Shown here: positions 6,489-22,959 of the stretch, piece after piece | Numbering within the stretch: the stretch's first letter is position 1 | How the letters are laid out: each line of letters starts with the position of its first letter | Assembly: GCA_946625225.1 (NCBI GenBank) | Contig: CAMOTA010000003.1 | Location: forward strand, 205 to 64,204 | Source of the DNA: an uncultured Eggerthellaceae bacterium | GTDB taxonomy: Bacteria; Actinomycetota; Coriobacteriia; Coriobacteriales; Eggerthellaceae | Length of the DNA stretch: 64,000 nt | Reading direction: 5' to 3' | Position numbers and translations under genes: made by a program | The notes under the pieces: model-generated | The model's input: only the letters and a program-made list of their open reading frames with translations | What the model was told of the DNA's origin: nothing | The model's database searches: none

Positions 6489-7793
6489 CTATTGCGAATC
6501 GGCCCTGCATGCATAGGGCTTGCCATCGCGGTACACGGCAAAGACGATGGCGCACAGCTTGCGCACGACGGCGCTTACGGCAACCTTGTGGCATTTGCCT
6601 TCGGCGCGCTTCTTCTCGTAATAGGCATGCAGCGCAGGGTCGTAACGGCGGGCGCGGTCGGCGGCCACCCACAGGTACCACCGCAGATAGCGCGACCCGC
6701 GCTTCGACAGATGGGCGCGCGTGCCCTCGAACTCGCCCGATTCGTATACCGAAGGATCGCAGCCCGCAAACGCCACGATCTGGGCGGCACGGGAAAAGCG
6801 CGATATTCCGCCGAGCTCGCTTAATATGCCCGCTGCGCATACCACGCCGATTCCCGTAATGCTCATTATCAGCTCGCCTTCGACCGCGCGTGCGAGCACG
6901 CGGTCGATTGCGGCAAGCTGTTCTTGGGCAAATTCGATGAACGCCAGTTGCTGGCGCAGCTGGAATTCCAGATATTCGCTGCTCTGCCCAATGGAAGACC
7001 GGGCAGCTCGTTGCAGGTCTTGCGCCTTTGCGTAGCCAAAGGAATTGCGCGAGGCCGCACGCAGCTCTTCCTCAATCGAAGACGCGCTGGCACCGGATAG
7101 GGCGCGGGCGCCTGGCCACTTCTTCAGAACCGCGATGGAGGCCTTGCAAAAACAGTCGGCGAACAGGCGATGGTATTCGGGGAAGAGCATGTCGAGAAGC
7201 GAAACGGCCTTGCGTTTGCAATCGCCGGAAACGCGCGACACATAGAAGCGGAAACGCGTGAGCGAGCGCAAATCGTCCATGCGGGATTTCTCGTGGTAGT
7301 GGCGAGCGGGGTTGCCGGCATAGAGCCAAAGCGCCAGGGCCTCGGCGTCTACGCGGTCGTTTTTCACGTTTCGGATGTTCATGGCTTTGCGCCAATTGCT
7401 TGTGAGCAGGGGGTTCACCTCGTAGACCTCCATGCCGTGCGCTTTCAGGAATTCGACGAGGTTGCGGCCGTAATGGCCCGTTGCCTCCAGGCACACACCG
7501 ACGGGGTGCTCGTGGTGCGGTTCGAGGGCGTTCGAGAGCTCGGGATGCGATTCCCGCAGGTCGCTTTCGCGAAGATGCGACTTCGGCCCATCCGGTTCTG
7601 GAGCCGTCGGGTTGTCGCCACCCTCATGGGCCTGTCGCTGCAAGACGCCAATCGTTTCGAGCTGCTTCAAAAATGCAGCGAACCCCTCTGCGTCGTTCAT
7701 GAAGTCGAAGCCGACAAGCAACCGCTCGCCCCGTTCGCCGATGACCGCAGCCGAGTGCTTGTATTTCGCGACGTCGATTCCTACACAATACAT
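6489..7793 (-). mobile_element. IS110-family (DEDD) transposase gene; element termini not defined
   Basis: 434 aa. The N-terminus 'MYCVGIDVAKYKHSAAV' is typical of the DEDD_Tnp_IS110 domain. The C-terminus 'ITGIGVVCAAGILSELGGISRFSRAAQIVAFAGCDPSVYESG...HLSKRGSRYLRWYL' is typical of Transposase_20. No terminal inverted repeats were found, as expected for this family. Confidence 0.85.
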
Positions 7794-7892
7794 TGCAACC
7801 TCCTTGCATCAAGGAAGCCCGAATTGCGAAGAGCGCTTCGCCTTCGCGGCGAGCTCCCCGCCCTGCTGCAATGTGCCCTGCACTTCGACATG

Positions 7893-8026
7893 ACGCGATG
7901 CGATGCGGCGCGGCGCGGTGCTGAGCGAATCGCGCGATGCGATGCGGCGCGGCGCGGCGCGGTGTGGTGCGATGCGGCGCGGCGCGGCGCGGTCCTGCGC
8001 GATGCGATGCAGCACGGCATGGCACG
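7893..8026. repeat. Degenerate GC-rich tandem repeat (unit ~GCGATGCGATGCGGCGCGGCGCGG, about 4 copies)
   Basis: Read directly from the sequence, 100-235 bp upstream of the IS110 transposase start codon. Confidence 0.7.
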
Positions 8027-8262
8027 ACATTATGCGGTACGACATGGCGCGAAGCGGATTGGCAATGCCGATTTCGGTTAGGCGAGTGGTTGCCGTCCGG
8101 CAATCGCGCAAAGCAGCGAAAAGCGGGGCGCGATCCTCCTTGAAGAGAACCAGGTCTCAGGCTTCACTGATTCCGCGACCCCCGCCAAGAACATTATACC
8201 TAAGTGCACTGTGCCGAGGAGGTGGTTTTCTTGCCGCAGCACGAGCGCCAAGAGGGCGCGCG

Positions 8263-9222
8263 CTACTGTTTTCGTGCGGCGGCCATCGCCTCTTCTATGA
8301 CGTTTTCGTCTATTCCGCGCGCCCGCAGCTGCGACGCCAACGCATCGATGCCTTGTTCCAGGCCCTGCTCCCGGCCCTGCTCGACGCCCTGCTCGCGGCC
8401 GCGCTCTTCCGCCTCGCGTTCAAGGCGCTCGGCGCGCTCCCTCATAAGCTCCAGCACTTCTCCGCCCATGGTTCGCCTCACCTTCCTCCGCAAGGTTTCG
8501 TGCTTGGCAAGCAAGTGATCGGTCACCTTTATTATAAGCTCGACCAGCTGCTCGTAGAGCAGGGAATCGCCTTTGGCGAGCGTCTCCGATTCCAGACCCG
8601 CGCGCAGTTCGGCGCATTCGGCCACGAGCTCGCTTGTGCGCACATCGTCGCCGTCTATCTCCGAGAGCTGGCCCTCGTAGCGCATCAGGTAGTAGGGCAG
8701 CAGAAGCAACAAGCCCCTCTCGAAGATGTCGTCGCTGCTGAAGCGCTGGGCCTTCACCACGCGCGAAGCGTACATGAACGATTCGCCGCTCGGAAGATTC
8801 ACCTTCATCTGCAGCTCGTCGGGGGTTTTCGAGGTGTGCCGCAGGAACAGGACGCAGGATTCGGGAAAGTTCATCTCGTAGGGAGCGCCGGCCCGAATGG
8901 CCTCTTCGAGGGCGATCGCGAAATCGTATTCAACCATGCGCACCACCATGTCGGTCTCCGGCGTGCTCTGGCATTCGATATGGTAAATCTTGTCCCCCAA
9001 GCGCAGCATCGAATCGGTGATGTTCTTGCCGAGAGGGCCCTCGTGTTCGTTGTCGATTCGCAGGATGGGATCGTCAAGCGCGTAGCTCCTGCCGAACGCC
9101 TCGTTGATGAAGGGGACGATAAGCCGGGGAGTTTTCTGCATCATGGTCTTGAAGACGGAGTCGAATACGGTGTTGTCGGGCATGAAGAACTCCTTTCCAG
9201 CCGCCTGGATACGGCCGCTCAT
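8263..9222 (-). CDS. Rpn/YhgA-like PD-(D/E)XK recombination-promoting nuclease / putative transposase
   Basis: 319 aa. N-terminus 'NTVFDSVFKTMMQKTPRLIVPFINEAFG', core 'GDKIYHIECQSTPETDMVVRMVEYDF', and a repetitive acidic/Gly C-terminus 'EERGREQGVEQGREQGLEQG'. This pattern is typical of the family. The call rests on motif recognition only. Confidence 0.55.
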   Translation of the reverse strand: MSGRIQAAGKEFFMPDNTVFDSVFKTMMQKTPRLIVPFINEAFGRSYALDDPILRIDNEHEGPLGKNITDSMLRLGDKIYHIECQSTPETDMVVRMVEYDFAIALEEAIRAGAPYEMNFPESCVLFLRHTSKTPDELQMKVNLPSGESFMYASRVVKAQRFSSDDIFERGLLLLLPYYLMRYEGQLSEIDGDDVRTSELVAECAELRAGLESETLAKGDSLLYEQLVELIIKVTDHLLAKHETLRRKVRRTMGGEVLELMRERAERLEREAEERGREQGVEQGREQGLEQGIDALASQLRARGIDENVIEEAMAAARKQ

Positions 9223-9383
9223 GGTGTGCGAAAGCGCCGAGACAGCGTTTTCGTGTCCTGTTCGAACAATAGGGAAAGCTGTCCCCGAACGCTCGGGTTA
9301 AGGGGGCGTAACATACTCGACTACTCAGGCTCGCGGGAGACCCCCAGCTATGCATATGCCGATTGCGGCGATTGACCCCATGC

Positions 9384-9472
9384 GGAAGGTCTCGCGGAAG
9401 GCCCTGCGGAGGGTCTTGCGGAGGGCCCTGTGGAAGGTCTCGCGGAAGGCCCTGCGGAGGGTCTTGCGGAGG
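9384..9472. repeat. 24-bp tandem repeat (about 3.7 units; GGAAGGTCTCGCGGAAGGCCCTGC / GGAGGGTCTTGCGGAGGGCCCTGT)
   Basis: Read directly from the sequence; intergenic, upstream of the Rpn-like gene. Confidence 0.8.
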
Positions 9473-9616
9473 ACTCGGCCGCACCCGCCGCCGTCAGCAT
9501 GGAACGTCTTCGCCGGATCGTTATGCAATCATAGTACACATATTTGTATAACTTGATTGAGATTTCGCGGATCTATTTCCTTTGGTCAGTGCTGCTTTTC
9601 ACGGCACCGTAGCCCA

Positions 9617-9948
9617 TCCACCCGCAACCCCGGTCTCGCAGAAACGAGGGCGGACTTGCGGGTGGACGGGGCCACGGGGACGCCGCTTTCCACCCGCAAC
9701 ACGCACTTCGTGGAAACGAGGGCGGACTTGCGGGTGGACGGGGCCATCAGAGCGCCGATTTCGGCCCTTTGCAGGCAGAAGGCGGGGGTTGCGGGTGAAA
9801 TCGCAAGTTGCCGGCAAGAGCCGACCAGGGAAAACTCCACCAGGAGCCTCCCGGGAAGCGGGAAATCCACCCGCAACACGCGCCTCGTGCGGCGAAAGCC
9901 CGGGAAATGCCAATCTGGTGGCCCCTTCCACCCGCAACACGCGCCTCG
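9617..9948. repeat. Cluster of TCCACCCGCAAC motifs. Two 58-bp units (9617-9674, 9689-9746) each contain the inverted repeat TCCACCCGCAA...TTGCGGGTGGA; further copies lie at 9789, 9866 and 9927.
   Basis: Direct reading. The two long units are ~90% identical and spaced 72 bp apart. The cluster lies 270-600 bp upstream of the pilin gene at 10216. Confidence 0.75.
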
Positions 9949-10186
9949 CTCCCGCCGCTGGCCGGGCTGTGGAAAGCAACTGGTCAGTTTCGATTCCGCG
10001 GGATAACTGACCAGGCGTCCTGCCTCGCCGATTTCGAATATGGGCTTGCCCCTCGCAGCTTTCAGCCGTCTTGCGCATTTGCCGCCTCGCCCGCAGTATC
10101 GCCAACAGACTAGAAGATCTGGCCGATGGTAAATCGGCCGGAGCCCCCCTTCTAAATGTACGTGGGTTAGCCATGCCCGACAAAGG

Positions 10187-10344
10187 ATCGCCTTCTTCGA
10201 CTGAAGGAGGCTTCTATGCTAGACATGCTCAAGGAGCGCAAAGCCGCGCTCGAAGCCCAAGGCCAAAAGGGCTTCACCCTGATGGAGATGCTCATCGTCA
10301 TCGCCATCATCGCGATCCTGATCGCCATCGCCATCCCGATTTTC
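10187..10344 (+). repeat. Left arm of a 158-bp inverted repeat (RBS plus the first 43 codons of the pilin gene)
   Basis: Only 2 mismatches against the reverse complement of 18892-19049. Nucleotide identity collapses immediately after 'CCGATTTTC'. Confidence 0.9.
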
Positions 10345-10665
10345 TCCGGCCAACTAGAGAACGCCCGCGAGGCAACGGACGCAGCGAACATCCGCTCTGC
10401 ATACGCCGAAGCCGCGACGCATGCGCTTTCGGACGCGAATGAAGACTTCACGGCAACGGTGGATAAGCAGCAGGCGCAGGCGGATTGGCAGAACACCTCT
10501 CTCGGCACCGAACTCATCGGAGGCATTGCGGTGAACAGCCTCAACTCCAATACGCCCACGACGATTACCTACACTGCCGCGAACTCTTCCGACACAAATG
10601 CGGGTAAGATTATGATTGATGGCCAAGAGGCGGTGACTTCGTTCGAAACGCAGACGCAGCCTTAA
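10216..10665 (+). CDS. Type IV pilin (prepilin-type N-terminal cleavage/methylation domain); major-pilin candidate, copy L
   Basis: 149 aa. The class III signal is 'MLDMLKERKAALEAQGQKG|FTLMEMLIVIAIIAILIAIAIPIF' (Gly-1, Phe+1, Glu+5). A strong RBS (GAAGGAGG) precedes the ATG and the gene has its own terminator at 10703-10736. Confidence 0.9.
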   Translation: MLDMLKERKAALEAQGQKGFTLMEMLIVIAIIAILIAIAIPIFSGQLENAREATDAANIRSAYAEAATHALSDANEDFTATVDKQQAQADWQNTSLGTELIGGIAVNSLNSNTPTTITYTAANSSDTNAGKIMIDGQEAVTSFETQTQP

Positions 10666-10702
10666 GTCGATAGCATTAGTGCAGGATAGAATCCAGTTTG
10701 CT

Positions 10703-10736
10703 GGAAGGTGCCGCCTCGGCGGCACCTTCTTTTGGT
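10703..10736 (+). terminator. Rho-independent terminator after pilin copy L
   Basis: GGAAGGTGCCGCC / GGCGGCACCTTC stem followed by TTTTGG. Confidence 0.75.
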
Positions 10737-10978
10737 CTAGGAACAGGCAAAAGACAACGGGGACGGAGAATGCTTTGACAGCTCTACACCATCAGACGTC
10801 TTGCTACGGTGCGGATATGTTTTCTCAGGTAGATAGCTGGAATTATGTGCGACTGCACATAACAATGAGCAACGGCGTAACCAGACCGAATTTCGGGTAG
10901 CACGCGCGTGTGTCAGGAGGGGGCGTTGCAGCCTTGTGGCGCCCCCTCTTCATGTGGCAGCTGCTAGGTGAAGGCGAA

Positions 10979-11011
10979 AATGAGTCGGGAGAACCGATCT
11001 CCCGACTCATT
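10979..11011. repeat. 33-bp perfect hairpin element (AATGAGTCGGGAGA-N5-TCTCCCGACTCATT), copy 1
   Basis: Identical 14-bp arms also occur at 18395-18427 and 21598-21630; only the loops differ. Confidence 0.85.
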
Positions 11012-11268
11012 GGGGCGCGTCCCGGCACACGGCCGTCGCGCTCGCGCGGGCGTTCATTATGCATGCCGCGGCGGCGTTCGCCCCCGCCCTCCCGGGGCTC
11101 GCGGCAGGAAACGGCCTTGTACGGTGCCGGGGACGCCAGAAAGCGCCGGTGTACGGAGCTTTCTGGCGGGAAACGGCCTTGTACGGTGCGAAAACGGCCC
11201 TTCGCCCTCCGTACATGGGCGATTCCCGCCACGAGGCCCGCGGCGGGGGCTCCCGGGCACCGTACAAC

Positions 11269-11299
11269 GTGTGTCAGGGGGACGTTTCTCTTGACACGC
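11269..11299 (+). repeat. 30-bp REP-like element (consensus GTGTGTCAGGGGGACGTTTCTCTTGACACAC) plus adjacent conserved module 'CGCnCTTTTGTCGAAGGAAnCATCCCTGG'
   Basis: Direct reading. The same element plus module recurs at 13369-13430 and, inverted, at 18444-18504. Confidence 0.85.
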
Positions 11300-11487
11300 T
11301 CGCACTTTTGTCGAAGGAATCATCCCTGGTGCACTAGCAAAGACAGCGGGGACGGAGGCTATTGTCTTCCCGGCTAGCAGACAACGGGAACGGAGGGTGT
11401 TGTCTCCCTGGCCAAGCGTCGTCGCGGCCTTGTCGGCGACGCGAGTAGACAAGGCCCCTCCGTCCCCGTTGTGTGCTCCCGCCCCCA

Positions 11488-11596
11488 GGCGCCGTCGCCT
11501 GCGCCCGTCCGGCTTCGGCAAACCGCGCATTTCGCGCAATCTCGTGCATTTTGCGCCCGGAGCTGCATGAGATTGCGCATTATGCCCGGTTTCGCC
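11488..11596. repeat. ~110-bp repeat 'B', left copy (inverted relative to 16399-16506)
   Basis: ~88% identity to the reverse complement of 16399-16506. Contains the internal inverted repeat GCGCAATCTCGTGCA...TGCATGAGATTGCGC. Confidence 0.8.
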
Positions 11597-11640
11597 TGGC
11601 CCCCGCGACGAGGGCTGCCGCAATCACATGGAAACGCCGC

Positions 11641-11669
11641 GTGTGTGGGGGGCGTTTCTCTTAGCACGC
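11641..11669 (+). repeat. Degenerate REP-like element (GTGTGTGGGGGGCGTTTCTCTTAGCACGC)
   Basis: Direct reading. Its position relative to repeat B mirrors 16357-16386 relative to the right B copy. Confidence 0.6.
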
Positions 11670-11774
11670 GAATGTCAACCGGCGGTTTACCTCTCTCCGG
11701 CGGCCGGGGCGTATCGTCTTTCCCGTAAGCGGCGGACGGCACGGGGGCCGGCCGCACGAAGGGAAGGACGCACC

Positions 11775-12422
11775 ATGAAAAAGGGTCTGACGGAGCTCGT
11801 GTTCGTAGTGGATCGCAGCGGGTCGATGGGCGGGTTGGAAAGCGATACGATCGGCGGCTTCAACGCCACGCTCGAAGCGCATCGCAAGCAGCAGGGCGAG
11901 GCCGTGGTGTCCACCGTGCTCTTCGACAACGAAATCGAGGTGCTGCACGACCGGCTGCCCATTGCCGAGGTTGCGCCCATCACCGAGCGGGAGTACTGGG
12001 TGCGCGGGTGCACGGCGCTGCTCGACGCCGTCGGCGGGGCGGTGAAGCACATCGGGCGCGTGCACGGCTATCTGCCCGAGGAATATCGTCCCGAGCGCAC
12101 GATCGTGGTAATAACGACCGACGGCATGGAAAACGCCAGCTGCAAGTACACCTACGACCAGGTGAAGGCGCTTATCTCGCAGAAGGAAAAGGAGGGCTGG
12201 AGCTTCCTGTTCCTGGGCGCGAACATCGACGCGGCGGCCGAGGCGGACCGCATCGGCATTTCCGCCGACCATGCGGCCACCTACCTTGCGGACGACGAGG
12301 GCACGCGCGTCATGCACGAGGCGCAATGCCAGGCAACCGTGGCCATGCGAGGCGGCGCATCGCTGGCGGGCGGGGCGTGGAAGCGCAACATCGAGCGCGA
12401 CACCGCGGCGCGCGGCAGGTAG
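11775..12422 (+). CDS. von Willebrand factor type A (vWA) domain protein
   Basis: 215 aa from the internal ATG 'MKKGLTELVFVVDRSGSMGG' (MIDAS motif DxSxS). An RBS (GGGAAGGA) lies upstream. The longer track ORF (11628) starts inside repeat DNA. Confidence 0.8.
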   Translation: MKKGLTELVFVVDRSGSMGGLESDTIGGFNATLEAHRKQQGEAVVSTVLFDNEIEVLHDRLPIAEVAPITEREYWVRGCTALLDAVGGAVKHIGRVHGYLPEEYRPERTIVVITTDGMENASCKYTYDQVKALISQKEKEGWSFLFLGANIDAAAEADRIGISADHAATYLADDEGTRVMHEAQCQATVAMRGGASLAGGAWKRNIERDTAARGR

Positions 12423-12427
12423 GCAAT

Positions 12428-12458
12428 GCGTCAAGAGAAGCGTCCCCCTGACACACAC
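12428..12458 (-). repeat. REP-like element (inverted orientation)
   Basis: GCGTCAAGAGAAGCGTCCCCCTGACACACAC, located 6 nt after the vWA stop codon. Confidence 0.8.
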
Positions 12459-12791
12459 GATGAAAAGGCGCGCGCGAACGTTCGCCAAGCCGGTGAGACG
12501 GCCTTCGCGCGTCTAAGCAACAGCCCGGCTCTGCCGGGCATGGGCAAACACGTCTAAACTAATGGAAGCGCCGCATGCTCAACTTTTGGCGCATGCCATC
12601 ATCGTTGCGTCAGCAAAAGCCAGCTCTCTTCTTTGCTAGATGCCGATTCTCGGAAGGGCACTATGCAGCTCCAATCCCGATAAACTTAACTCGTACACCA
12701 ATATTTTACGTTCAGGTAAACTTCAAGTATTATATTACCTATAAGTAAACTGTTCTCAAATAGTACGAATACGTAAAACGTCAGGAGCCCA

Positions 12792-13016
12792 ATGGTTTCC
12801 GAAACTTATATCTGGGAAGGGGCCGACCTCGGCAGGGCGCTGCGGGAGAGGAGGCGCTCGCTTGGCATTCGCCAAGCCGACGCGGCGGCTGCCCTCGGCT
12901 TCTCGCCTCGCCTCCTTTCCGAAATGGAGAACGGGCGCGACACCGTCGCGTACGGGAAAGTACTGCGCTATGCCGGCTACTTGGCCATGGACCTCGTGCT
13001 GCGCGAGAGGGGCTAG
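12792..13016 (+). CDS. XRE-family helix-turn-helix protein (antitoxin-like)
   Basis: 74 aa; 'LRERRRSLGIRQADAAAALGFSPRLLSEMENGRDTV' is a classic HTH_XRE motif. It is preceded by a ~250-bp AT-rich stretch. Confidence 0.75.
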   Translation: MVSETYIWEGADLGRALRERRRSLGIRQADAAAALGFSPRLLSEMENGRDTVAYGKVLRYAGYLAMDLVLRERG

Positions 13017-13018
13017 CC

Positions 13019-13369
13019 ATGGCGGTTCCAAGGCGCTACGAGATACGCTTGTTCGACAGGCCGCTCGTCGAATTCGCCGTGAGCGACGGGCTCATGGGCC
13101 CAGACATTGAACTAAGCGATTACGACAGCACGGCCTTGCCCCTCATGCCCTGCGGTCTGTCTCTTACGCCTGAAGGGATCAGGACCTGGCTCGAGATTAG
13201 GTCCATCCCGACGAACCGCCGTAACGCCGCTCGGATATGCCGCGAGCTCGGCTTCAAGCTCGGCGACTTGGAAGCGCTCTTCGAGGCCCTTGATGCAGCA
13301 ATTGCCAAAAGGGCCCCTGCCAGCGATGGCGCATTCCGATTGGCACCCGGAAACGTTGATTTGAATTAG
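13019..13369 (+). pseudogene. Hypothetical 116-aa ORF, possibly a truncated HipA-like toxin N-terminal fragment
   Basis: It starts 2 nt after the HTH gene stop. The 'IRTWLEIRSIPTNRRNAARICRELGF' motif resembles the 'WLxxRxIPxxRxN' motif I recall from N-termini of some HipA-family kinases. The ORF ends exactly where the REP pair at 13369 begins. This is a weak, memory-based assignment. Confidence 0.3.
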
Positions 13370-13470
13370 CGTGTCGGGGGGACGCTTCTCTTGACACACG
13401 CGCGCTTTTGTCGAAGGAAGCATCCCTGGCGCACTGGCAAGTGTGTCAAGAGAAGCGTCCCCCGACACGC
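13369..13470. repeat. Inverted pair of REP-like elements flanking a ~40-bp conserved module (MITE-like, ~100 bp)
   Basis: GCGTGTCGGGGGGACGCTTCTCTTGACACAC ... GTGTGTCAAGAGAAGCGTCCCCCGACACGC; the two arms are reverse complements. Confidence 0.85.
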
Positions 13471-13558
13471 GTCCCCGCTTCTGGTCCTGTCAGGCCGATG
13501 GGATACAATGGCATGCAACCGAAATCGGCTTTGCGCCGCGAATGCATGGAGGACGAAC

Positions 13559-14782
13559 ATGGCTGGTGAAGCGTTGGAGATGGATGGCGAGAGGAAGCCC
13601 GTAGAAGTCGTGCTGGTAACGGGATACCTGGGGGCGGGAAAGACCACGCTGCTGAACAGCGTGCTTTCGAACGACCGGGGCCTGAGGGCTGCGGTTATCG
13701 TGAACGACATCGGCGAGGTGAACATCGACGCCGACCTGCTGGGCGATGGCCCGGATGCGCTGGCTCAGAGCGTGGTGCCGCTGACGAACGGCTGCATTTG
13801 CTGCACGCTTTCGGACGACCTGGCCGCGCAGCTGTCGGACCTGGCCCAGGCGGGCGCTTACGACTACATAATCGTGGAAGCTTCGGGGATATGCGAGCCC
13901 ATGCCCATTGCCTACACGATTTCGGAGTACTGCCAGCAGGCGGCGGAAGGGGCTTCCGCCGCCACTGCTGCGGACGAGCCTGCGGTTTCCACGGCGGAGC
14001 CCGCCGCTGCCACCGGCGCCGCTGCCCCCGCGCCCGCGCCCTTGCTGGCGCTGGACAACATCGTGGCCGTCGTGGACTGCGCGCGCATGTTGCACGAATT
14101 CGACGGCGGGAAACGCCTTTTGCGTCAGGACCTGAACGAAGACGATGTGGAAAGCCTGCTCGTGCAGCAAATCGAATTCTGCACCACGCTGGTCCTGAAC
14201 AAAACGGACCTGGTCAGCGCAGAGCAGCTGGCCGAAGTGCGCGCCATCGTGCGCACGCTGCAGAAAGACGCGACCATCGTCGAAGCCGAACATGGGCAGG
14301 TGCCGCTCGGCCAGGTGCTGGGGACGCGCAGGTTCGATTTCGACGAGGTGTACCAGTCGGCCGCATGGCTGGACATGCTGGCCCACCCCGAAGAGCACGA
14401 GGACCCCGAAACGCTGGAATATGGCATTTCCACGTTCGTGTACGAACGTCGGCGCCCCTTCAGCGTACAGGCGTTCTCGGACTTCGCCACGAACTGGCCC
14501 GACTCGGTCATTCGCACGAAGGGCTTCGCATGGGTCGACCAAGATCCCGATACCTGCTTCATCCTAGAACAGGCGGGCGCCCAGCGCTCGTTCACCGACA
14601 ACGGGCCGTTCGTGGCATCGTTGCCCGAGGAAGACCAGCAGCGCATCTTGCAGCAGAACCCCGGCGTTGCCGCGCGGTGGAGCCCCGAATGCGGCGACCG
14701 CCTGATACGCCTGGTGTTCATCGGGAAGGACATGGACCGCGCCGCCATCGAGGCGCGTCTGGATGCATGCCTTGCGGGCTAG
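13559..14782 (+). CDS. CobW/YjiA/ZigA-family G3E GTPase (putative metallochaperone)
   Basis: 407 aa from 'MAGEALEMDGERKPVEVVLVTGYLGAGKTTLLN' (P-loop). It has the 'NGCICCTL' CxCC metal motif and a CobW_C-like C-terminus, plus an Ala/Pro-rich insert. An alternative start is at 13508. The track ORF start at 13391 lies inside REP DNA. Confidence 0.85.
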   Translation: MAGEALEMDGERKPVEVVLVTGYLGAGKTTLLNSVLSNDRGLRAAVIVNDIGEVNIDADLLGDGPDALAQSVVPLTNGCICCTLSDDLAAQLSDLAQAGAYDYIIVEASGICEPMPIAYTISEYCQQAAEGASAATAADEPAVSTAEPAAATGAAAPAPAPLLALDNIVAVVDCARMLHEFDGGKRLLRQDLNEDDVESLLVQQIEFCTTLVLNKTDLVSAEQLAEVRAIVRTLQKDATIVEAEHGQVPLGQVLGTRRFDFDEVYQSAAWLDMLAHPEEHEDPETLEYGISTFVYERRRPFSVQAFSDFATNWPDSVIRTKGFAWVDQDPDTCFILEQAGAQRSFTDNGPFVASLPEEDQQRILQQNPGVAARWSPECGDRLIRLVFIGKDMDRAAIEARLDACLAG

Positions 14783-14854
14783 CCGCAACCAAAGCCCGCC
14801 AGCACCCGCGCCGCTTGGCGGGCGCGCAAGAGAGAGCGCGACAAGGAGCACAGC

Positions 14855-16348
14855 GTGCCGCTCACGATAGAAAGAAACGACTTGTCTGCGGTTTCGGCCG
14901 ACGCCATCGTCGTGGCCGCGAACGAATGGCTTCAGATTACCGGCGGCGTGGGAATGACCGTCGCCCGGGCGGCCGGCCTGCAACAGCTGCAGGCGGCATG
15001 CGACGCCATCGGGCACTGCCCGTGCGGTTCGGCCGTGGCAACGCCTGCGTTCAACCTGGATGCCCGGGTCGTGGTGCATGCCGTCGGACCTACGTGGCAC
15101 GGGGGTCATCGCGGCGAGGCCGACACCTTGCGCGAGACCTACGATGCGGCCCTGGAATGTGCCTTCGCGGAAGGCGCCCGTTCCGTTGCCCTTCCGCTTA
15201 TATCGGCAGGCACGTATGGTTTCCCGTCGGACGTTTCGCTTGCCGTTGCCCGCGAAGCCATCCGCGCGTTTTTGAACAGGCACGACAGCATGAACGTGCG
15301 CCTCGTGTTGTACAGCCGCGAATCCGTTGCCGCCGGCATAGCGGCCTATCTGGACATAGCGGAGTACATAGACGATCACTACGTGGCCGACAGCGCCGCA
15401 TGGAACGTGCCGCAGGAGAGCATCATCTTCGATGCGCAGGCACCTGGCCCTGCATTTTCCGGCCCGCGTTTCGAATCTGAGGACGCGGGCGGAGAATCGC
15501 CCCGTCTGCAGGCGGGCGCAATAGACGCAATAGACGCGATAGACGCGATGGGCGCGATGGGCGCGATGGATGCGGCAGCCCCGGAAGCTCGGCAGCCAAA
15601 GGAGCGGCGGGGCCTCTTCGCGCGTTTCGGCGAGGCGCTGGAGCGTTCGCGGCCGCGGCGAGACGAATCGCGCGACGGGGAAGGCGTCGCAGAAGGCGCA
15701 ATCGCAGACGGCAGCGCATCGGCCGTGCTGCTCGCGCCCCAAGCAGCGCCCGACGAAATTGCAAGCGAGGCGGACTCCATCGATGCGGCCATGCTCGATG
15801 CGGCATTGGAGGAAGCGTCGGCTGAGCCCTCTATTGTCGCCCCAGCCCCGGCCGCTTCACCGAGTTCCCCCACTTCGGATGGCGTACAGAGCGCCGAGCG
15901 CGCGATGGGTTCGGCGGGCGCGCTGGTCGCTCCGGGTGCCACAGGCGCGCTGGAGCCGGTCGGTACGGCGAGCATGCGGGGCACACCACGCCTGGAAGAC
16001 CTGCTGGACAACCTGGACGCCCCGTTTTCCACGACGTTGCTTGCGCTTATCGACGAGCGGGGGATGAGCGACGCGCAGGTGTACAAGCGCGCGAACATGA
16101 GCCGCCAGCTGTTCAGCAAGATTCGCTCGAACGCATCGTACCGCCCCACCAAGAAAACCGCCCTGGCCCTGGCCGTGGCGCTCGGGCTGGATTTGGAAGA
16201 GACCCGCGCGCTGCTCGGCCGGGCCGGTTTCGCGCTTTCCCGCAGCAGCAAGGCAGACGTTATCGTGGAATACTTCATCCGCACGGGCAACTACGACATC
16301 TTCCAGATTAACGAAGCCCTATACGCCTTCGACCAGCCCATTCTCTAG
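14855..16348 (+). CDS. Macro domain protein fused to a C-terminal HTH (XRE-like) domain
   Basis: 497 aa with a GTG start. Macro-domain motifs: 'AIVVAANEWLQITGGVG', 'VVHAVGPTWHGG', 'SVALPLISAGTYGFP'. A long acidic/Ala-rich linker follows. The C-terminus 'LLALIDERGMSDAQVYKRANMSRQLFSKIRSN...PTKKTALALAVALGL' is HTH-like. Confidence 0.8.
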   Translation: MPLTIERNDLSAVSADAIVVAANEWLQITGGVGMTVARAAGLQQLQAACDAIGHCPCGSAVATPAFNLDARVVVHAVGPTWHGGHRGEADTLRETYDAALECAFAEGARSVALPLISAGTYGFPSDVSLAVAREAIRAFLNRHDSMNVRLVLYSRESVAAGIAAYLDIAEYIDDHYVADSAAWNVPQESIIFDAQAPGPAFSGPRFESEDAGGESPRLQAGAIDAIDAIDAMGAMGAMDAAAPEARQPKERRGLFARFGEALERSRPRRDESRDGEGVAEGAIADGSASAVLLAPQAAPDEIASEADSIDAAMLDAALEEASAEPSIVAPAPAASPSSPTSDGVQSAERAMGSAGALVAPGATGALEPVGTASMRGTPRLEDLLDNLDAPFSTTLLALIDERGMSDAQVYKRANMSRQLFSKIRSNASYRPTKKTALALAVALGLDLEETRALLGRAGFALSRSSKADVIVEYFIRTGNYDIFQINEALYAFDQPIL

Positions 16349-16356
16349 CGCACATA

Positions 16357-16386
16357 TGTCAAGAGAAACGTCCCCCTGACACACAC
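16357..16386 (-). repeat. REP-like element (inverted orientation)
   Basis: TGTCAAGAGAAACGTCCCCCTGACACACAC, located 9 nt after the macro-HTH stop codon. Confidence 0.85.
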
Positions 16387-16398
16387 GGCAGGGGCCGA

Positions 16399-16506
16399 GC
16401 GAAACCGCGCATAATGTGCAATCTCATGCAATCCTGAGCGCAAAATGCATGAGATCGCGCGAAATGCGCGGTTCGCCGAAACCGGGCGAGCGCGGGCAAC
16501 GGCGTT
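16399..16506. repeat. ~110-bp repeat 'B', right copy
   Basis: See 11488-11596. Confidence 0.8.
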
Positions 16507-16788
16507 CGAGAGCGGCAGGCCGCTCGGCGGCGCTCGCGCGCTCGTCGAACCCGTCGACCGCCGCCTGCTGCGCCCCGTACAAGGCGGCGGCCGGGGCCAT
16601 CATGCTCGAGGTGGAGCGGTTTGGCTCACACGAGGTGCGCCATGCGCAGCGGCAGGTAAATCCTGTTGCCTTCGCCCTCAGGGTCTGCACGACCGCGTTC
16701 GATGCGTGTCGGGATGCAGCTCGAATCGTACGGCTGGGCCGATATGTCCATTATATACGCGCGGACACCCGCCCACGTCATGGTAGCT

Positions 16789-18123
16789 TTATGGCAGGGG
16801 CAACATCGCGAGGTAAAGCGGCAGCGTCACCTTCTTGCCATGGCGGCCCACGTTGCCGTCGATGAGCTTGTAGCCGACGACTACGCCCTCCCGCCCGAGC
16901 ACGTTGTCTAGGGATGCGGTGGAGCCGCGAGAGGCTTTAACCTCGACGGGCTCGACCGCACCGCCGCGCTCGAGCAGAAACTCGATCTCGTGGTTGCCGC
17001 TTTTCGACATCCAGTAGCGCAGCGGGTCGCCGTTGGCGGCGAGCATGCATGCGACCAGGTTCTCGTAGAGCCCGCCTTTCATCGGCCCTTTCAGGGTGTT
17101 GTCCACGACTGCAGCCTTCATGCTGAAATCGTACATCGCCATGAGCAGCCCGGTGTCGTTCGCGTAGAGCCTGAAGCGGCTCCCGTCTTCGTAGGCTGCG
17201 AGCGGAAAATCGAGCGTGGAGACGGCTTGGCAGCGCAAGGCCATTTCCGATCCGACCACCCAATCGACCGCCCTGTCGAATTTCCGCGCGCTCCCGCGCT
17301 TCTCGACGACTGCGTACTGGAACTTGGTGTTCTCTTTGGCGAGCTGCCGCGGAAGCGACAGATAGCACGAGCGAGCTTTGACGCGCTGTGCGGAAGAGGC
17401 GTAGCGCGCTATGTCGTCGAGGTAGAGCGCATGGATGGCCAGCTGCTCCTCGTGGGCGGCGCCGTAATCCCACCCGTTCGAGAAGGCCTCGACCACGGCG
17501 GGCATGCCGCCCACCGCAAGGTATTCCCTCAGGAGTCGCATCATCATGTCGTGCACCGCCTGGGGAATCGGCTCGAGGGTGCTCAGATGGGACTTCAGCG
17601 AATCGAGCGCTTCGTCGTCGTAGCCTCGTGCCCAGAGGAACTCCTCGAAATCGAGGGGGCGCATCGTCACCTGTTCCTCGTAGCCCACGGGCAGAGAGGG
17701 CGTATCATCAAGCTCGCGGAATCTTACGCCGAGCAAGGACCCGGATCCGACGACGTCGCACCTGCCATCTTGCGCGAGGTATTTGAACGAGGCGCGCGCC
17801 GCCGGACATTCCTGTATCTCGTCGAAGAACAAAAGCGTCTTGCCGGGCACGATATGCGCCCCGGGGACGATCAGCGTAATGCGCGAGAGCACGCTTTCCG
17901 CCGAGAGCGGTCCGTCGAAGACGGCCCGGTACTCGGGATGCTCGACGAAGTCGAGCTTCACGTAGCTCTCGTAAGCCTCCTCGCCGAAGCGGTCGACGAT
18001 GAAGGACTTCCCCACCTGGCGCGCCCCGTTAACGAGGAGGCACTTCTTTTTATGCGATTTCTTCCATCGGGTGAGAAAATCGGTCATCTTCCTTCTGAGC
18101 ACGGCGTCCTCCTTCAAATGCAA
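16789..18123 (-). CDS. AAA-superfamily ATPase with DUF4143-type C-terminal domain
   Basis: 444 aa. 'CLLVNGARQVGKSFIV' is the P-loop. The overall pattern matches AAA_14 plus DUF4143 'ATP-binding protein' genes. An alternative start is M13 (18087). Confidence 0.75.
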   Translation of the reverse strand: MHLKEDAVLRRKMTDFLTRWKKSHKKKCLLVNGARQVGKSFIVDRFGEEAYESYVKLDFVEHPEYRAVFDGPLSAESVLSRITLIVPGAHIVPGKTLLFFDEIQECPAARASFKYLAQDGRCDVVGSGSLLGVRFRELDDTPSLPVGYEEQVTMRPLDFEEFLWARGYDDEALDSLKSHLSTLEPIPQAVHDMMMRLLREYLAVGGMPAVVEAFSNGWDYGAAHEEQLAIHALYLDDIARYASSAQRVKARSCYLSLPRQLAKENTKFQYAVVEKRGSARKFDRAVDWVVGSEMALRCQAVSTLDFPLAAYEDGSRFRLYANDTGLLMAMYDFSMKAAVVDNTLKGPMKGGLYENLVACMLAANGDPLRYWMSKSGNHEIEFLLERGGAVEPVEVKASRGSTASLDNVLGREGVVVGYKLIDGNVGRHGKKVTLPLYLAMLPLP

Positions 18124-18394
18124 CTTTTCAAGGATATTTTATGCTGATGTTTGCATCTTTTTAGAACCAATTATACCAATGATTGCATCTTTTCACGATA
18201 GCGCCCAAACCTCGTTGGCACCCCGAGAGGCAGCCAAAAGCGCTGCGAGCGCAACGACCGACCTCGTAGGTGTTTGCACGCAATGGAGATATGAGCAATG
18301 TTCCATTGCCTGAGGGGTAATGGAACATGTTGGGCACATTCGCATGACAGCATGATTGAAGGGCGAGGTCCATGCGACCCTCGCCCTTCTCGAC

Positions 18395-18427
18395 AATGAG
18401 TCGGGAGAACGTTTCTCCCGACTCATT
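18395..18427. repeat. 33-bp perfect hairpin element, copy 2
   Basis: AATGAGTCGGGAGAACGTTTCTCCCGACTCATT. Confidence 0.85.
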
Positions 18428-18443
18428 TTTCACAGCCCCATTA

Positions 18444-18504
18444 CCAGGGGTGCTTCCTTCGCCAAAAGCGCGAGTGTGTCAAGAGAAGCATCCCCCTGAC
18501 ACAC
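18444..18504 (-). repeat. REP-like element plus adjacent conserved module (inverted orientation)
   Basis: CCAGGGGTGCTTCCTTCGCCAAAAGCGCGA + GTGTGTCAAGAGAAGCATCCCCCTGACACAC; this is the reverse complement of the arrangement at 11269-11340. Confidence 0.85.
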
Positions 18505-18523
18505 GCCCCCAACCATTCTTAAC

Positions 18524-18561
18524 TTAGCAAAATGGGGCAGACATTACGGTGCCCGCCCCAT
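18524..18561 (-). terminator. Probable Rho-independent terminator after pilin copy R
   Basis: On the minus strand: ATGGGGCGG...CTGCCCCAT stem followed by TTTTGCT. Confidence 0.55.
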
Positions 18562-18588
18562 CGTTACGCCAAATAAAGCTGCGTACTA

Positions 18589-19020
18589 CTACGAGAGTGT
18601 GTAAGTCACAGAGCTCAACGCCCCATTGCTATAAGTGAACACGACCGTAGCGCTACCGGGGGTACCACCGTCTTCAACTTCAAACGGAAGCTCAGTAGCT
18701 ACCCCACTCCAGTTATTCGCTTGCTGGGATTCGATCCTCACCCCATCAACGGTGACGGTATCAGCATCTGCATCGTACACTGCGTGCGTTCCGTCATTCT
18801 GTTTTGTGATGTAAACCGTCTGCGCCTCAGCATATGCCGAGCGAATGTTTGCAATCGACGTTGCGTCGCGGGCATTCTCGAGCTGGCTTGTGAAAATCGG
18901 GATGGCGATGGCGATGAGGATCGCGATGATGGCGATGACGATGAGCATCTCCATCAGGGTGAAGCCCTTTTGGCCTTGGGCTTCGAGCGCGGCTTTGCGC
19001 TCCTTGAGCATGTCTAGCAT
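18589..19020 (-). CDS. Type IV pilin, copy R (paralogue of 10216-10665)
   Basis: 143 aa from the internal ATG. The first 43 aa are identical to copy L ('MLDMLKERKAALEAQGQKG|FTLMEMLIVIAIIAILIAIAIPIF'), then the sequence diverges ('TSQLENARDATSIANIRSAYAEAQT...'). It has the same RBS. The track ORF start at 19215 is an upstream extension. Confidence 0.9.
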   Translation of the reverse strand: MLDMLKERKAALEAQGQKGFTLMEMLIVIAIIAILIAIAIPIFTSQLENARDATSIANIRSAYAEAQTVYITKQNDGTHAVYDADADTVTVDGVRIESQQANNWSGVATELPFEVEDGGTPGSATVVFTYSNGALSSVTYTLS

Positions 19021-19049
19021 AGAAGCCTCCTTCAGTCGTAGAAGGCGAT
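18892..19049 (-). repeat. Right arm of the 158-bp inverted repeat (RBS plus first 43 codons of pilin R)
   Basis: See 10187-10344. Confidence 0.9.
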
Positions 19050-19426
19050 TTCTTTTCCCGCCCTCTGTCTTGTTTCGAATTCTACTCCAACCGAGTTTCA
19101 AAATAAACGCTGAAACGGGCCGTTTGGCGCTTCTGACGTTAACGTTTGCGTTACGTAATTCAGCGACTAAATATATCATTTTTGCAAATCTTGTAGAAGC
19201 GTTTTGCCATGTCACAAGATGTTGCGGGCAACTCGAACGCTAGCCGGAGCGTGCACGCGCGGTCGAATTTTTGGGCCACATGTCCCAACTTGCAAAGACG
19301 CCACAGATACGCAGTCTCAGGGGAGGCTGCAGCCACCGCCGCGCAATCAGGCATGCAAATGGGCGCGCGCTTCAGAGCCACCCTGTCCTTCATGCCGTGC
19401 GCTTTGCCGAATGATACACTGCCACT

Positions 19427-19849
19427 GTGGAATGCGACATGGGCGAAAGGCGGGACGTGCGAAAGAGGCTGATGGAATACCGCAAGCGCATCGACGCGTT
19501 GCTGGACGCCGACGCGCCGGGCACAGATTGGGATGCGGCCATCGAAGAGCATCTGGCGCAGACGGCGTTCTTCCAGCACGAACGGCTTATCCACCTGCTG
19601 GTAACGCTGGCGTTCGCGCTGATGGAGCTGGCAAGCGCCATTGCGGCGATGCTGGCACCCGCAGGCTCTGTGCAAGTCCTGGCAGCAGCGCTGGCCGTGC
19701 TGTTGCTGGTGCTGCTCGTGCCCTACATCGTGCACTACTACTTCCTGGAAAACGAGACCCAGAAGCTGTACGCGCAATACGACCGCATGATATCGCTGCG
19801 CGAAAGCGCCGAGCGCGGCGGGAAAACCCGGCCAGCCCCGCCCATCTAG
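19427..19849 (+). CDS. Hypothetical small membrane protein (2 predicted TM helices)
   Basis: 140 aa. It has a charged N-terminus followed by 'LIHLLVTLAFALMELASAIAAML' and 'VLAAALAVLLLVLLVPYIV'. The amino-acid composition looks protein-like, unlike the overlapping alternative ORFs. I recognise no homology. Confidence 0.45.
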   Translation: MECDMGERRDVRKRLMEYRKRIDALLDADAPGTDWDAAIEEHLAQTAFFQHERLIHLLVTLAFALMELASAIAAMLAPAGSVQVLAAALAVLLLVLLVPYIVHYYFLENETQKLYAQYDRMISLRESAERGGKTRPAPPI

Positions 19850-21519
19850 CCGATGAGCACGTCCTTGCCCGAGAATGCGAAGCCCACTTCGCGGATGCGG
19901 TCGGGCGATATGCCGCGCTCGACCAGCTGGCGAGCGTAGGCGCGCTCGGCAATCTGAGCCTTGGCGGCGGCAAGGGCTTCTTCGATGGTCTCGCCGCGGC
20001 GAGCGTTGGCCACCTTGAACTCGATGGCGAAGGCGGGGTCATCCGAGGCCAGGGGACAGAGCATAACGTCGTAGCGCCCATAGCCGCTCTCGCGATTGCT
20101 GGTTACCTCGTAGCGGCCGCGCAGCTCCACGAGCAGGCCCAGCACCAAGCCGTGGTAGAAGTTCTCGGGCGCCGATGCGCCGCGGCCCCCGCCGGCGTCG
20201 AAATGCGAGACGCAGCCCTCCAGCACGTCGAGCAGGTAGGCGTTCGCGCCCTCGAGATCGCCCGCCAACAGGCAGCGACAGAACTCGGAGTACGCAGCTG
20301 CGCCGTCGTCGAACCAGGCGCGCACCATCTTGTCGAACATGTGGCGCACCTCGCGGTTGGTCACGGCCAGCTCGGCGGTCGTGTCGCCGCAGAACTCGGC
20401 CCCGAGGACTTTCAGGTAGCCGCTTGCCACCAGCAGCGACCACACGGCGTTGGGCACGCGGCCTATCTCGCCGAAGACCACCTGCTCGTCGAAGGTCTTG
20501 GTGACGCTGCCGCCCGCTAGCAGCTGCTCGAAGTCGGCCTGGATGGAAGCATCGGTGCGCACGGCCTGCGAGACCAGCGCGTTGCCGGAGCTGTTCGCCC
20601 AGTAGGGAGCCAACCGTCCGCGCTTCAGGTAGTTAGTGACCGACCAGGGGTTGTACACGTGGTCCACCTCGCCGAAGCGAAAGCCGTCGTACCACTCGCG
20701 CACCTCGTCGCGGTTTCCGGCAAGCCCCATCTCGTCCATGGCGGCAAAGACCTCGTCTTCGGTGAATCCGAAGGCGGTCTCGTAGGCGTCCGTCGTGGTG
20801 GTGACGACCGCCAGATTGTTCAAATCGCTGAATATCGATTCGCGGCTGACGCGCGTCACCCCCGTTATCAGCCCGCGCCCGAGCGAGGGGCAGGCCTTGA
20901 AGGTGGCGTTGAACAGCGAGCGCTGGAAGGACACGGCCTCGTCCCACCAGCCGCCGGCCCAGGCCTCCTGCATGGGGGTGTCGTACTCGTCGAGAAGCAC
21001 GATGGGGCGCGTGCCATGGTGGGCTTCCAGCGCGATGCACAACTGCGCGAGACAGCCCGTGGCCGTGGCGTCGTCCATCTGGTCGGACACGCGCGCGAGG
21101 AAGGCCCGTACGCCGCTATCGACATCTGCAGAATCCATCAGATGGCGGTGCGCGCTGCACGCACCTGCCAGGGCGCGACACATCTGCGCGCGGGCCGTGG
21201 GCCAGTCGCCGCCCTTGCAGTCGGAAAAGGTGAGCGAGACCACCGGCAGCGTGCCCTGCAGCGAGCGGAAGCGCTCGTCGGCCCAGATTTCCAGCCCGCC
21301 GAACAGCTCTTCGCCGCGGCCGGCGTATTTCTTCGAGAAGAAGCATTGCAGCATGGACAGATTCAGCGTCTTGCCGAACCGCCGCGGCCTGCAGACGAGC
21401 GTGACCGCATCGCCTGCATCCCACCATTCCCGCACAAACGCCGTCTTGTCAACGTAAAAATAGCCGCCCTCGCGCACGACCGCGAAGTCCTGAACGCCTA
21501 TGTTCACCGTCCTGCCCAT
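19846..21519 (-). CDS. AAA-ATPase-like domain protein with C-terminal PD-(D/E)XK (PDDEXK_9-type) nuclease domain
   Basis: 557 aa from the internal ATG 'MGRTVNIGVQDFAVVREGGYFYVDKTAFVREWW...RPRRFGKTLNLSML', preceded by a GGGGAGG RBS. The C-terminus 'ESGYGRYDVMLCP...AFAIEFKV' is PD-(D/E)XK-like. Confidence 0.75.
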   Translation of the reverse strand: MGRTVNIGVQDFAVVREGGYFYVDKTAFVREWWDAGDAVTLVCRPRRFGKTLNLSMLQCFFSKKYAGRGEELFGGLEIWADERFRSLQGTLPVVSLTFSDCKGGDWPTARAQMCRALAGACSAHRHLMDSADVDSGVRAFLARVSDQMDDATATGCLAQLCIALEAHHGTRPIVLLDEYDTPMQEAWAGGWWDEAVSFQRSLFNATFKACPSLGRGLITGVTRVSRESIFSDLNNLAVVTTTTDAYETAFGFTEDEVFAAMDEMGLAGNRDEVREWYDGFRFGEVDHVYNPWSVTNYLKRGRLAPYWANSSGNALVSQAVRTDASIQADFEQLLAGGSVTKTFDEQVVFGEIGRVPNAVWSLLVASGYLKVLGAEFCGDTTAELAVTNREVRHMFDKMVRAWFDDGAAAYSEFCRCLLAGDLEGANAYLLDVLEGCVSHFDAGGGRGASAPENFYHGLVLGLLVELRGRYEVTSNRESGYGRYDVMLCPLASDDPAFAIEFKVANARRGETIEEALAAAKAQIAERAYARQLVERGISPDRIREVGFAFSGKDVLIG

Positions 21520-21597
21520 GTGCAGACCTCCCCGCCGCCGTTCATATGCAACGATTATACCGCGCACACGGCAAAGGCTCGCATCGCGCCAGACCGG

Positions 21598-21630
21598 AAT
21601 GAGTCGGGAGAACAGTTCTCCCGACTCATT
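21598..21630. repeat. 33-bp perfect hairpin element, copy 3 (located just after the pilC stop; possible operon terminator)
   Basis: AATGAGTCGGGAGAACAGTTCTCCCGACTCATT, 68 nt downstream of the pilC stop. There is no clear U-tract. Confidence 0.8.
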
Positions 21631-22930: not shown

Positions 22931-22959
22931 GGCTCTATCCCGCGCTCCTCTTCACGATG

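Follow-up and report, generated by a model that had tools for sequence, protein, structure and literature searches.

Inverted type IV pilin genes with a homogenised 5' block form a candidate pilin variation locus in a rumen Eggerthellaceae bacterium

In the tfpQ-tfpI system of Moraxella, the promoter and the 5' coding region of the pilin exist only once and lie outside a 2.1-kb segment, the silent copy has no start codon, and the recombination sites measure ~26 bp. This pilin inversion was reportedly described by Marrs in 1988 and by Fulks in 1990. Inversion at the sapA locus of Campylobacter fetus is RecA-dependent and takes place between the conserved 5' regions (~600 bp) of oppositely oriented homologues. 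The inversion of M. bovis and M. lacunata involves the recombinase Piv (PMC8131017, PMC11868660, PMC11187229). Here, we analysed a 64-kb stretch of DNA (hereafter the window) from an uncultured Eggerthellaceae bacterium of the sheep rumen, which is chromosomal as judged from the presence of pheT and uvrB. Two complete type IV pilin genes, pilin A and pilin B, lie tail to tail in this window and share a near-identical 158-bp block at their 5' ends, which forms the two arms of an inverted repeat. On balance, we favour the view that this is a two-cassette pilin variation locus, in which homologous recombination between the arms leads to gene conversion and to an occasional inversion that swaps the variable tail behind a single promoter. 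The inversion switch is likely, on the evidence of one recombinant contig and of a promoter asymmetry.

The locus resembles the Moraxella system in that the variable regions of two type IV pilins lie inverted to each other, exchange falls within the conserved part that encodes the N-terminus, a single promoter would drive the variable part that faces it, and a DEDD (IS110-family) gene stands beside the locus. Unlike in Moraxella, with its single 5' region and startless silent copy, both genes are complete here and only the promoter appears to be single. Moreover, the repeat of 158 bp has a graded end, the interval comprises 8.5 kb of unrelated genes, the recombinase has 434 amino acids (aa) and thus falls outside the 315-330 aa of the Piv/IS492/IS621 branch, and the organism is a Gram-positive actinobacterium. 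The original prediction for this DNA had invoked the Moraxella/Piv precedent; the logic of that analogy holds, whereas membership in the system does not, given two complete copies and a protein of 434 aa in the long IS110-proper size range. With C. fetus sapA, the locus shares full-length homologues, long, conserved and homogenised inverted 5' regions, variable remainders and a single promoter, and sapA needs no dedicated invertase. However, the sapA homologues lie head to head and a promoter segment flips, whereas here the genes lie tail to tail, the variable parts would flip, and the conserved region measures 158 bp. By analogy, the anatomy appears closer to the C. fetus sapA inversion and the logic to match that of Moraxella tfpQ/tfpI.

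As in Neisseria pilE/pilS, one expression site would be accompanied by silent pilin sequence, exchange would be driven by homology, and constant N-terminal parts are joined to variable C-terminal parts (PMC11868660, PMC3899283). Whereas Neisseria undergoes irreversible, non-reciprocal conversion from many truncated silent copies, two complete genes are present here, and their exchange would be reciprocal and reversible. By inversion, shufflons of the R64/TP114 type (PilV tip adhesin, Rci) likewise alter a type IV pilin-family protein at its C-terminus and keep the N-terminus constant (PMC9881135). They use short sfx sites, several segments and a tyrosine recombinase and act on the minor pilin of a conjugative pilus; the window has no tyrosine recombinase gene. 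In the survey by Milman et al. (2023, PMC9881135), 'Pilin' is listed among the annotations enriched in predicted gene-altering programmed inversions, with an odds ratio of 8.4, and the kind of system is therefore already known. The predictions of that survey also place inverted repeats within paralogous coding sequences, but typically pair one long gene with short, oppositely placed fragments of pseudogenes (PMC9881135), whereas the partners here are intact and of equal size. What is new here is the design with two complete genes, the Coriobacteriia lineage and the recurrent IS110-family neighbour.

A repeat finder returned inverted arms at 10187-10419 and 18817-19049 (233 nt, 90% identity), the one repeat pair in the window that involves the pilin genes. 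Alignment of 10187-10344 (+) with 19049-18892 (-) left 2 differences in 158 nt: T/A at 10197, which lies 19 nt 5' of the ATG in the untranslated leader, and G/C at 10320, a synonymous change in a Leu codon (CTG/CTC). The exact stretch separating the two counts 122 bases. Upstream of -29, the sequences of the two pilin loci are unrelated. Downstream of CCGATTTTC (codon 43), the matches per 30 nt fall stepwise from 24 to 21, 18 and 13 and then to 7-8, which is the random level. The near-identical block with its 2 differences and the loss of identity beyond it, both of which had been claimed from the letters alone, were thus confirmed by repeat finder and alignment. In the transition zone that follows the arms, pilins A and B are ~78% identical in protein and ~75% in DNA; here the homogenised tract comes to its graded 3' end. 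The window has two exact copies of a 44-nt core of the block, where 0.00 are expected by chance. Both arm copies were found base for base in several independent public assemblies, and the repeat is therefore not an assembly artefact of this contig. The 5' untranslated region (UTR) of the arm holds an anti-Shine-Dalgarno hairpin (CCTTC...GAAGG), and its mature-pilin part encodes the hydrophobic, membrane-embedded helix alpha1-N.

Both proteins are type IV pilins as judged from profile scores (PF07963, 35 bits at a cut-off of 21; TIGR02532, 36 at a cut-off of 16) and from their sequences: a 19-residue leader that ends in Gly (QGQKG) is followed by FTLMEMLIVIAIIAILIAIAIPIF, that is, the N-terminal methylation motif (F-T-L-x-E), and by a hydrophobic helix of ~20 residues. 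Each gene has its own ribosome-binding site, start codon, full leader and terminator, with a terminator-like hairpin at 10703-10730 3' of pilin A. Pilin B lies downstream of pilB, pilT and pilC (21698-25716) on the same strand, in a gene order that agrees on public contigs, and the pair is thereby associated with homologues of the pilus machinery. PilD and PilM are absent from the 64-kb window, and two minor-pilin-like open reading frames (ORFs) are present near 28409 and 29068.

Type IV pilins are universally conserved in protein sequence over their N-terminal 40-45 residues. We compared synonymous sites, counting codons with an identical amino acid in both genes. Pilins A and B differ synonymously at 1/36 such codons within codons 1-40 and at 10/21 within codons 41-66 (Fisher p=7e-5). 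Since synonymous sites are essentially identical in the block but about half of them are changed outside it, protein-level selection cannot explain the identity. As a background, we used 79 pilin loci from other species, with one genome per species. The N-terminal blocks of paralogous pilins in these loci are 70-85% identical, with a maximum of 91% over ~100 nt, and a near-identical inverted pilin pair occurs in 0 of the 79. That the pair is a general trait of the pilin family was rejected on this absence and on that from a close relative, L113, which has a single pilin and no pair.

By looking up homologous pilins on public contigs, we obtained four more tail-to-tail pairs of complete pilin genes, all of them on metagenome contigs (L024, L025, L115 and L116), with L115 and L116 derived from one sample. 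L024 reads pilC, pilin, Wzy_C, AAA_16, inverted pilin and IS110; in L025, a giant adhesin is followed by pilin, Wzy_C, inverted pilin and a gene resembling tyrosine recombinases; L116 and L117 read pilin, Wzy_C, inverted pilin, DUF4143, IS110, pilD and pilM; and in L115 only 420 nt separate the two pilin stop codons. In all further pairs, identity is random upstream and rises to ~100% at the ribosome-binding site (-10 to -14); this level is kept up to a point between +85 and +125, beyond which identity decays. Between L115 and L116, the blocks are identical at 119/120 nt (codons 1-40), and the four pilin genes of these two loci share an identical block from -13 to +84 that is followed by mosaic polymorphisms. 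The blocks of all other loci differ from each other at 8-16 of 24-35 synonymous-capable positions (26-58%). Near-identity within a pair combined with divergence between loci means that each pair homogenises its own block. Such concerted evolution is direct evidence of ongoing intragenomic recombination, and the comparison shows that the arms exchange sequence often enough to remain identical while the block diverges between genomes.

The variable parts have recognisable relatives in other genomes (61% identity between pilin B and L115_p1, 40% between pilin A and L025_p1), and the variable types are therefore older than the split between these genomes. The pilin B type has the promoter in the window but not in L115, and the pilin A type has it in L025 but not in the window. 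The proposal of ongoing recombination confined to the constant 5' region is thus borne out by the synonymous-site test and by four further homogenised loci, and the comparison of 5' blocks across relatives came out as anticipated, with every further pair near-identical in the block and decaying beyond it. On these comparative grounds, we regard recombination confined to the constant region as established. A profile scan of genome contigs, based on the alignment of the two pilins and on leader-peptide patterns, gave no confirmed loci, and an exact-DNA scan of metagenome contigs for the block returned just two contigs, both known beforehand.

The relatives carry a Wzy_C gene (O-antigen-ligase-like, TfpO/PilO-like) between or beside the pilins, always downstream of one particular variable type (L024 2879-4906, L025 10669-11985, L116 8666-10519, L113 11409-12977); there is none in the window. 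This placement suggests variant-specific glycosylation of the pilin. In L025, two 398-aa genes (12813-14009 and 17718-18914; 92% identical) with tyrosine-recombinase-like motifs and no Pfam match stand at either end of a 5-kb island (nucleotidyltransferase, PhdYeFM/ParE, Fic) that directly adjoins the distal pilin. Next to the second of these genes is a third, partial pilin 5' block (17488-17562; 75 nt, 84%), and the pilin 5' block may be a target for the integration of an element.

Upstream of pilin B, L024_p1, L115_p2 and the pilin of L113, we found a putative sigma-A-like promoter (-35 element at -87; -10 element TAnAAT at -64 to -59) followed by a leader hairpin. The partner copies of pilin B, L024_p1 and L115_p2 have neither the conserved promoter nor the leader, and the 320 nt upstream of pilin A contain no promoter-like site. 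We thus take pilin A to be a silent or weakly expressed copy and presume that pilin B occupies the expression site.

The pilin leaders also carry CCTTC(GG), which is able to pair with the Shine-Dalgarno (SD) sequence GAAGGAGG (window 10187-10215 and 19021-19049; L024 2160-2215; L115 4970-5020; L113 9940-10000). In the relatives, an upstream CCGAAGG could compete for this pairing. The leader looks like an anti-SD/anti-anti-SD arrangement that could control translation.

An inversion between the arms alters neither pilin protein, so that look-ups with the exact proteins recover both orientations. They returned one recombinant junction, on L005 (ERZ28612955), a low-coverage metagenome contig of 1013 nt. 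L005 starts with 461 nt of the right-hand upstream sequence, promoter included. Its block has the right-hand allele at marker 1 but the left-hand allele at marker 2, placing the crossover within the 122-nt exact stretch, and its end comprises the entire variable part of pilin A plus 73 nt of the latter's own flank past the stop codon. All segments of L005 are 100% identical to the window. Its structure is the one expected from a crossover; a short conversion tract could not have ended in the downstream regions, because these have no homology. The promoter asymmetry and L005 are two supports for the geometry in which a crossover swaps the upstream regions. The original prediction had proposed exactly this, an inversion of 10345-18891 with exchange of the upstream regions; its geometry stands, and the inversion itself is not proven, with L005 set against nine parental junctions.

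In the mechanism that we propose, non-crossover exchange would keep the arms homogenised, and crossover exchange would invert the interval between them and leave both pilin proteins unchanged. The inversion would change which variable C-terminal part follows the conserved promoter on the pilC side (19107-19079), and the exposed filament surface would switch between type B, in the orientation of the window, and type A, in the inverted one. We consider the general homologous-recombination machinery, which would use the 120-160 bp of perfect homology, the most likely agent of this exchange, ahead of any dedicated site-specific enzyme. Homologous exchange is favoured because identity tapers gradually at the 3' end and because no recombinase gene is present in all five loci. 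The inverted geometry would protect the pair, as direct repeats would delete the interval. In the relatives, the interval holds the Wzy_C gene, whose constant place behind one variable type agrees with a function for that pilin; unrelated accessory genes have filled the interval in the window.

Several observations weigh against an inversion switch driven by homologous recombination. Ten public junctions span the block, and nine of them are parental, including L001-L004 on the left and L006, L007, L008 and L015 on the right. Sister assemblies of the study that yielded L005 (L013, L032 and L033) break precisely where the exact stretch ends, so that L005 may be a de Bruijn graph chimera. The reciprocal junction, left-hand upstream sequence joined to pilin B, was not found on public contigs, and look-ups with a spurious 191-aa ORF, a 136-aa ORF and the VWA-like and DUF4143 genes returned only parental junctions or contigs broken in the repeat. 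The promoter assignments are consensus matches, and L116 has the promoter at neither copy. Finally, given the recurrent IS110-family neighbour, the exchange could be enzyme-driven instead.

One further contig, L011 (ERZ1756109 k141_3484642), runs in its first 40 nt (compare window 18902-18925) from right-hand upstream sequence and block into a third pilin variant. This variant codes for AVLIAIA and GCGGTGCTTATCGCGATTGCC and matches neither copy of the window; the contig ends soon after. It suggests additional pilin cassettes or strains in that sample.

Alternatively, the arms could undergo non-reciprocal gene conversion only, with both pilins expressed and either co-assembled or separately regulated, and with inversion a rare event without biological role. 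The inverted layout would then persist since direct repeats would be lost by deletion. Concerted evolution does not by itself need crossovers, and the prevalence of parental junctions (9/10) and the start codon, ribosome-binding site and terminator retained by each gene agree with this explanation. So do L115 and L116, which hold four block copies on two contigs, where inter-locus crossovers would be harmful. However, conversion alone does not account for a conserved promoter and leader at only one copy per pair, nor for the tail-to-tail geometry in 5/5 loci, and L005 carries the downstream flank of pilin A behind the right-hand promoter, where there is no homology to end a conversion tract. 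We consider conversion without a switch possible but unlikely.

A second alternative is site-specific inversion by the neighbouring IS110-family DEDD recombinase, possibly RNA-guided, at a site inside the block and in the manner of Piv. The IS110-family ORF had been pointed out beforehand, and profile matches confirmed it. Its product combines an N-terminal DEDD RuvC-like domain with a C-terminal Tnp domain containing the Ser-Gly pair, the YESG motif is intact and aligns with IS621, and the similarity of the protein to the IS621 bridge recombinase is distant (E=3.6e-21). None of the sizeable ORFs of the window gave a match to a tyrosine or serine recombinase domain, which leaves the IS110-family gene as the sole dedicated recombinase-like gene in the 64 kb. 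The exact protein occurs on seven public contigs and has a single genomic context in the five places listed. The window contains no second copy, and the several copies or contexts within one genome that would indicate mobility were seen neither there nor on the public contigs. Three of the five pair loci (window, L024 and L116) have the gene at a distance of 1.7-2.6 kb past the promoterless pilin, with transcription directed away from that pilin, and 0 of the 79 other pilin loci has a homologue. Its place in L024 and L116 is between the pair and pilM. Identity between these two copies is 72% for the protein and ~72% for the DNA, compared with 69% (502 nt) for the DNA of the neighbouring pilM. 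In the window, the gene still adjoins the pair although pilD and pilM are elsewhere. An IS110-family pilin invertase is documented in the form of Piv (PMC11187229).

The 5' regions of the IS110 genes of the window, L024 and L116 have in common a ~75-nt stem/internal-loop element behind a TATAAT of its own. It was located by consensus folding of these three sequences, which are too few for covariation. The element has no Rfam match and is probably part of a bridge or seek RNA. Guide-like complementarity between the non-coding regions of the IS110 genes and the pilin block was sought in the three genomes by 8-12-mers, local alignment and positional recurrence, and none was convincing. Seemingly recurrent complementarity near +21 to +26 of the block did not extend in the alignment and was discarded as GC-rich noise.

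Several features of the IS110 proteins speak against their role as invertases. Those linked to pilins are 57-72% identical to each other, many other IS110 proteins of Coriobacteriia are at least as close to them, and an exclusive clade of pilin-linked proteins was rejected on these pairwise identities. The other Coriobacteriia relatives form large near-identical clusters, mostly on contigs of 1.3-3 kb, like ordinary multicopy insertion sequences. The pilin-linked proteins have 388-434 aa and the closest relatives of the window protein 388-424 aa. IS110 proteins fall into a long IS110-proper group and the 315-330 aa Piv/IS492/IS621 branch (PMC11187229), and by its size range the window protein appears to belong to the former and not to the Piv clade. 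Moreover, the immediate flanks of the gene differ in all three loci, L025 has tyrosine-recombinase-like genes instead, and the L115 contig shows no IS110 gene, so that no single recombinase gene is common to all five pair loci. Moreover, perfect identity over 120-160 bp that tapers off at its end is neither required by a site-specific enzyme nor accounted for by one. The link of the IS110 gene, present in 3/5 loci, to the repeat is suggestive but circumstantial, and we judge inversion by this enzyme to be unlikely. Quite unlikely, too, is the more specific proposal that a single-copy IS110-family bridge-RNA-type recombinase has been retained beside the inverted pilin pairs as a pilin invertase, in a second independent domestication after Piv and in Gram-positive rumen Eggerthellaceae, where a guide RNA might recognise the pilin block.

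Recent duplication with fast C-terminal divergence, in which purifying selection alone would maintain the 5' identity with no ongoing recombination, can appeal to the conserved pilin N-terminus but is contradicted, and highly improbable, on the synonymous sites, the 29-nt untranslated leader that the block takes in, the age of the variable types set against near-identical blocks within each pair, and the lower block identity of ordinary paralogous pilins.

A two-cassette locus recombining through its arms suggests that the surface of the pilus varies in these actinobacteria of gut and rumen through a DNA inversion that can be reversed, which bears on adhesion, phage receptors and immune or protozoal pressure in the rumen. 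To our knowledge, the type IV pili of Coriobacteriia are almost unstudied. As the simple design of two complete genes, a ~150-bp repeat that includes the translation start and one promoter recurs, it offers a clean natural case of homologous versus enzyme-driven inversion. Should the IS110-family neighbour turn out to catalyse the exchange, it would provide a natural example of programmed inversion by a bridge-RNA-type recombinase, something that, as far as we know, has been shown so far mainly in engineered settings and for Piv.

Table 1 Coordinates of the pilin pair and of associated features in the window.
Feature	Position	Strand	Description
Left arm	10187..10344	+	29 nt 5' UTR, 19-aa leader peptide, first 24 mature pilin residues
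Right arm	18892..19049	-	Content as in left arm
Transition zone, alpha1-C helix of pilin A	10345..10419	+	Partner in pilin B 18817-18891
Pilin A	10216..10665	+	Complete prepilin gene, 149 aa; PF07963 and TIGR02532 above cut-offs
Pilin B	18589..19020	-	Complete prepilin gene, 143 aa; PF07963 and TIGR02532 above cut-offs
Candidate pilin promoter	19079..19107	-	-35 TTTATT 19107-19102, -10 TAGAAT 19084-19079, 17-nt spacer
Interval that an arm crossover would invert	10345..18891		8.5 kb; both variable parts and terminators
IS110-family DEDD recombinase gene	6489..7793	-	434 aa; PF01548, PF02371; NF033542 226 bits (cut-off 140)
Conserved non-coding element upstream of IS110 gene	8115..8203	-	TATAAT 8203-8198, then ~75-nt stem/internal-loop with AAGGAGGATCGCG
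PilC, platform protein	21698-22930	-	Pfam T2SSE/MshEN/T2SSF set
PilT, retraction ATPase	22960-24012	-	Pfam T2SSE/MshEN/T2SSF set
PilB, assembly ATPase	24028-25716	-	Pfam T2SSE/MshEN/T2SSF set

The interval between the arms codes, as judged from Pfam, for a VWA-like protein, an XRE-type HTH protein together with a 116-aa ORF, a CobW-type GTPase, a macro-domain-HTH protein and an AAA_14/DUF4143 ATPase. These accessory genes are set apart by REP-like hairpins (GTCAAGAGAANCNTCCCCC; GTGTCAGGGGGACG..TCTCTTGACAC), a family of which 6/10 window copies lie inside the invertible interval. Copies occur at 11268-18505, with further ones at 47828, 50204 and 57731-57809. A second hairpin family, AATGAGTCGGGAGAAC....TCTCCCGACTCATT, is found at 10975, 18391 and 21594, and an inverted pair of 131 nt at 11476-11606 and 16388-16518. 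An Rfam search of 5500-22000 gave only sub-threshold matches to microRNAs and internal ribosome entry sites on the hairpin repeats.

Between pilin A and an Rpn-like gene lies a hairpin-repeat array (9617-9948; TCCACCCGCAAC...TTGCGGGTGGA) consisting of two 72-nt units and more copies, with 7 motif matches and none elsewhere in the window. Arrays of a CGCAA-type motif also adjoin the pilin pairs of L024 (4947-5004 and 10250-10307; TTTCGCAAG repeats) and L025 (9643-9775, 14771-14893 and 16290-16411). A contig from a metagenome-assembled genome (L019; GCA_003452695.1, DMNP01000134.1) matches window 2489-9960 at 99.4% and departs from it just past the array (contig 1-1833, set against window 9960), where a Peptidase_S8/ChW gene takes the place of pilin A. 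Either the strains differ by a rearrangement at the array or the contig is chimeric. Two other tracts in this part of the window are periodic. The first (7858-8057), an insertion that separates the conserved 5' element of the IS110 gene from its start codon, is GC-rich with a 10-nt periodicity (GCGATGCGGCGCGGCGCGG), and the second (9354-9484), upstream of the Rpn-like gene, is a separate tract with 12-nt and 24-nt periodicity (CGGAAGGNCNTG).

Genes of the PD-(D/E)XK nuclease family stand on either side of the pilin pair, at 8263-9222 (-) and 19846-21669 (-). One is the Rpn-like gene, named for a weak match to the Rpn family ('recombination-promoting nuclease'); the other encodes an AAA-ATPase_like and PDDEXK_9 protein and is inserted between pilC and pilin B. 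Directly upstream of the pilus cluster, a single ORF of 5686 aa (30425-47485, -) represents a surface protein gene, a position that is held in L025 and L113 by giant adhesins with SpaA/Big_2 domains.

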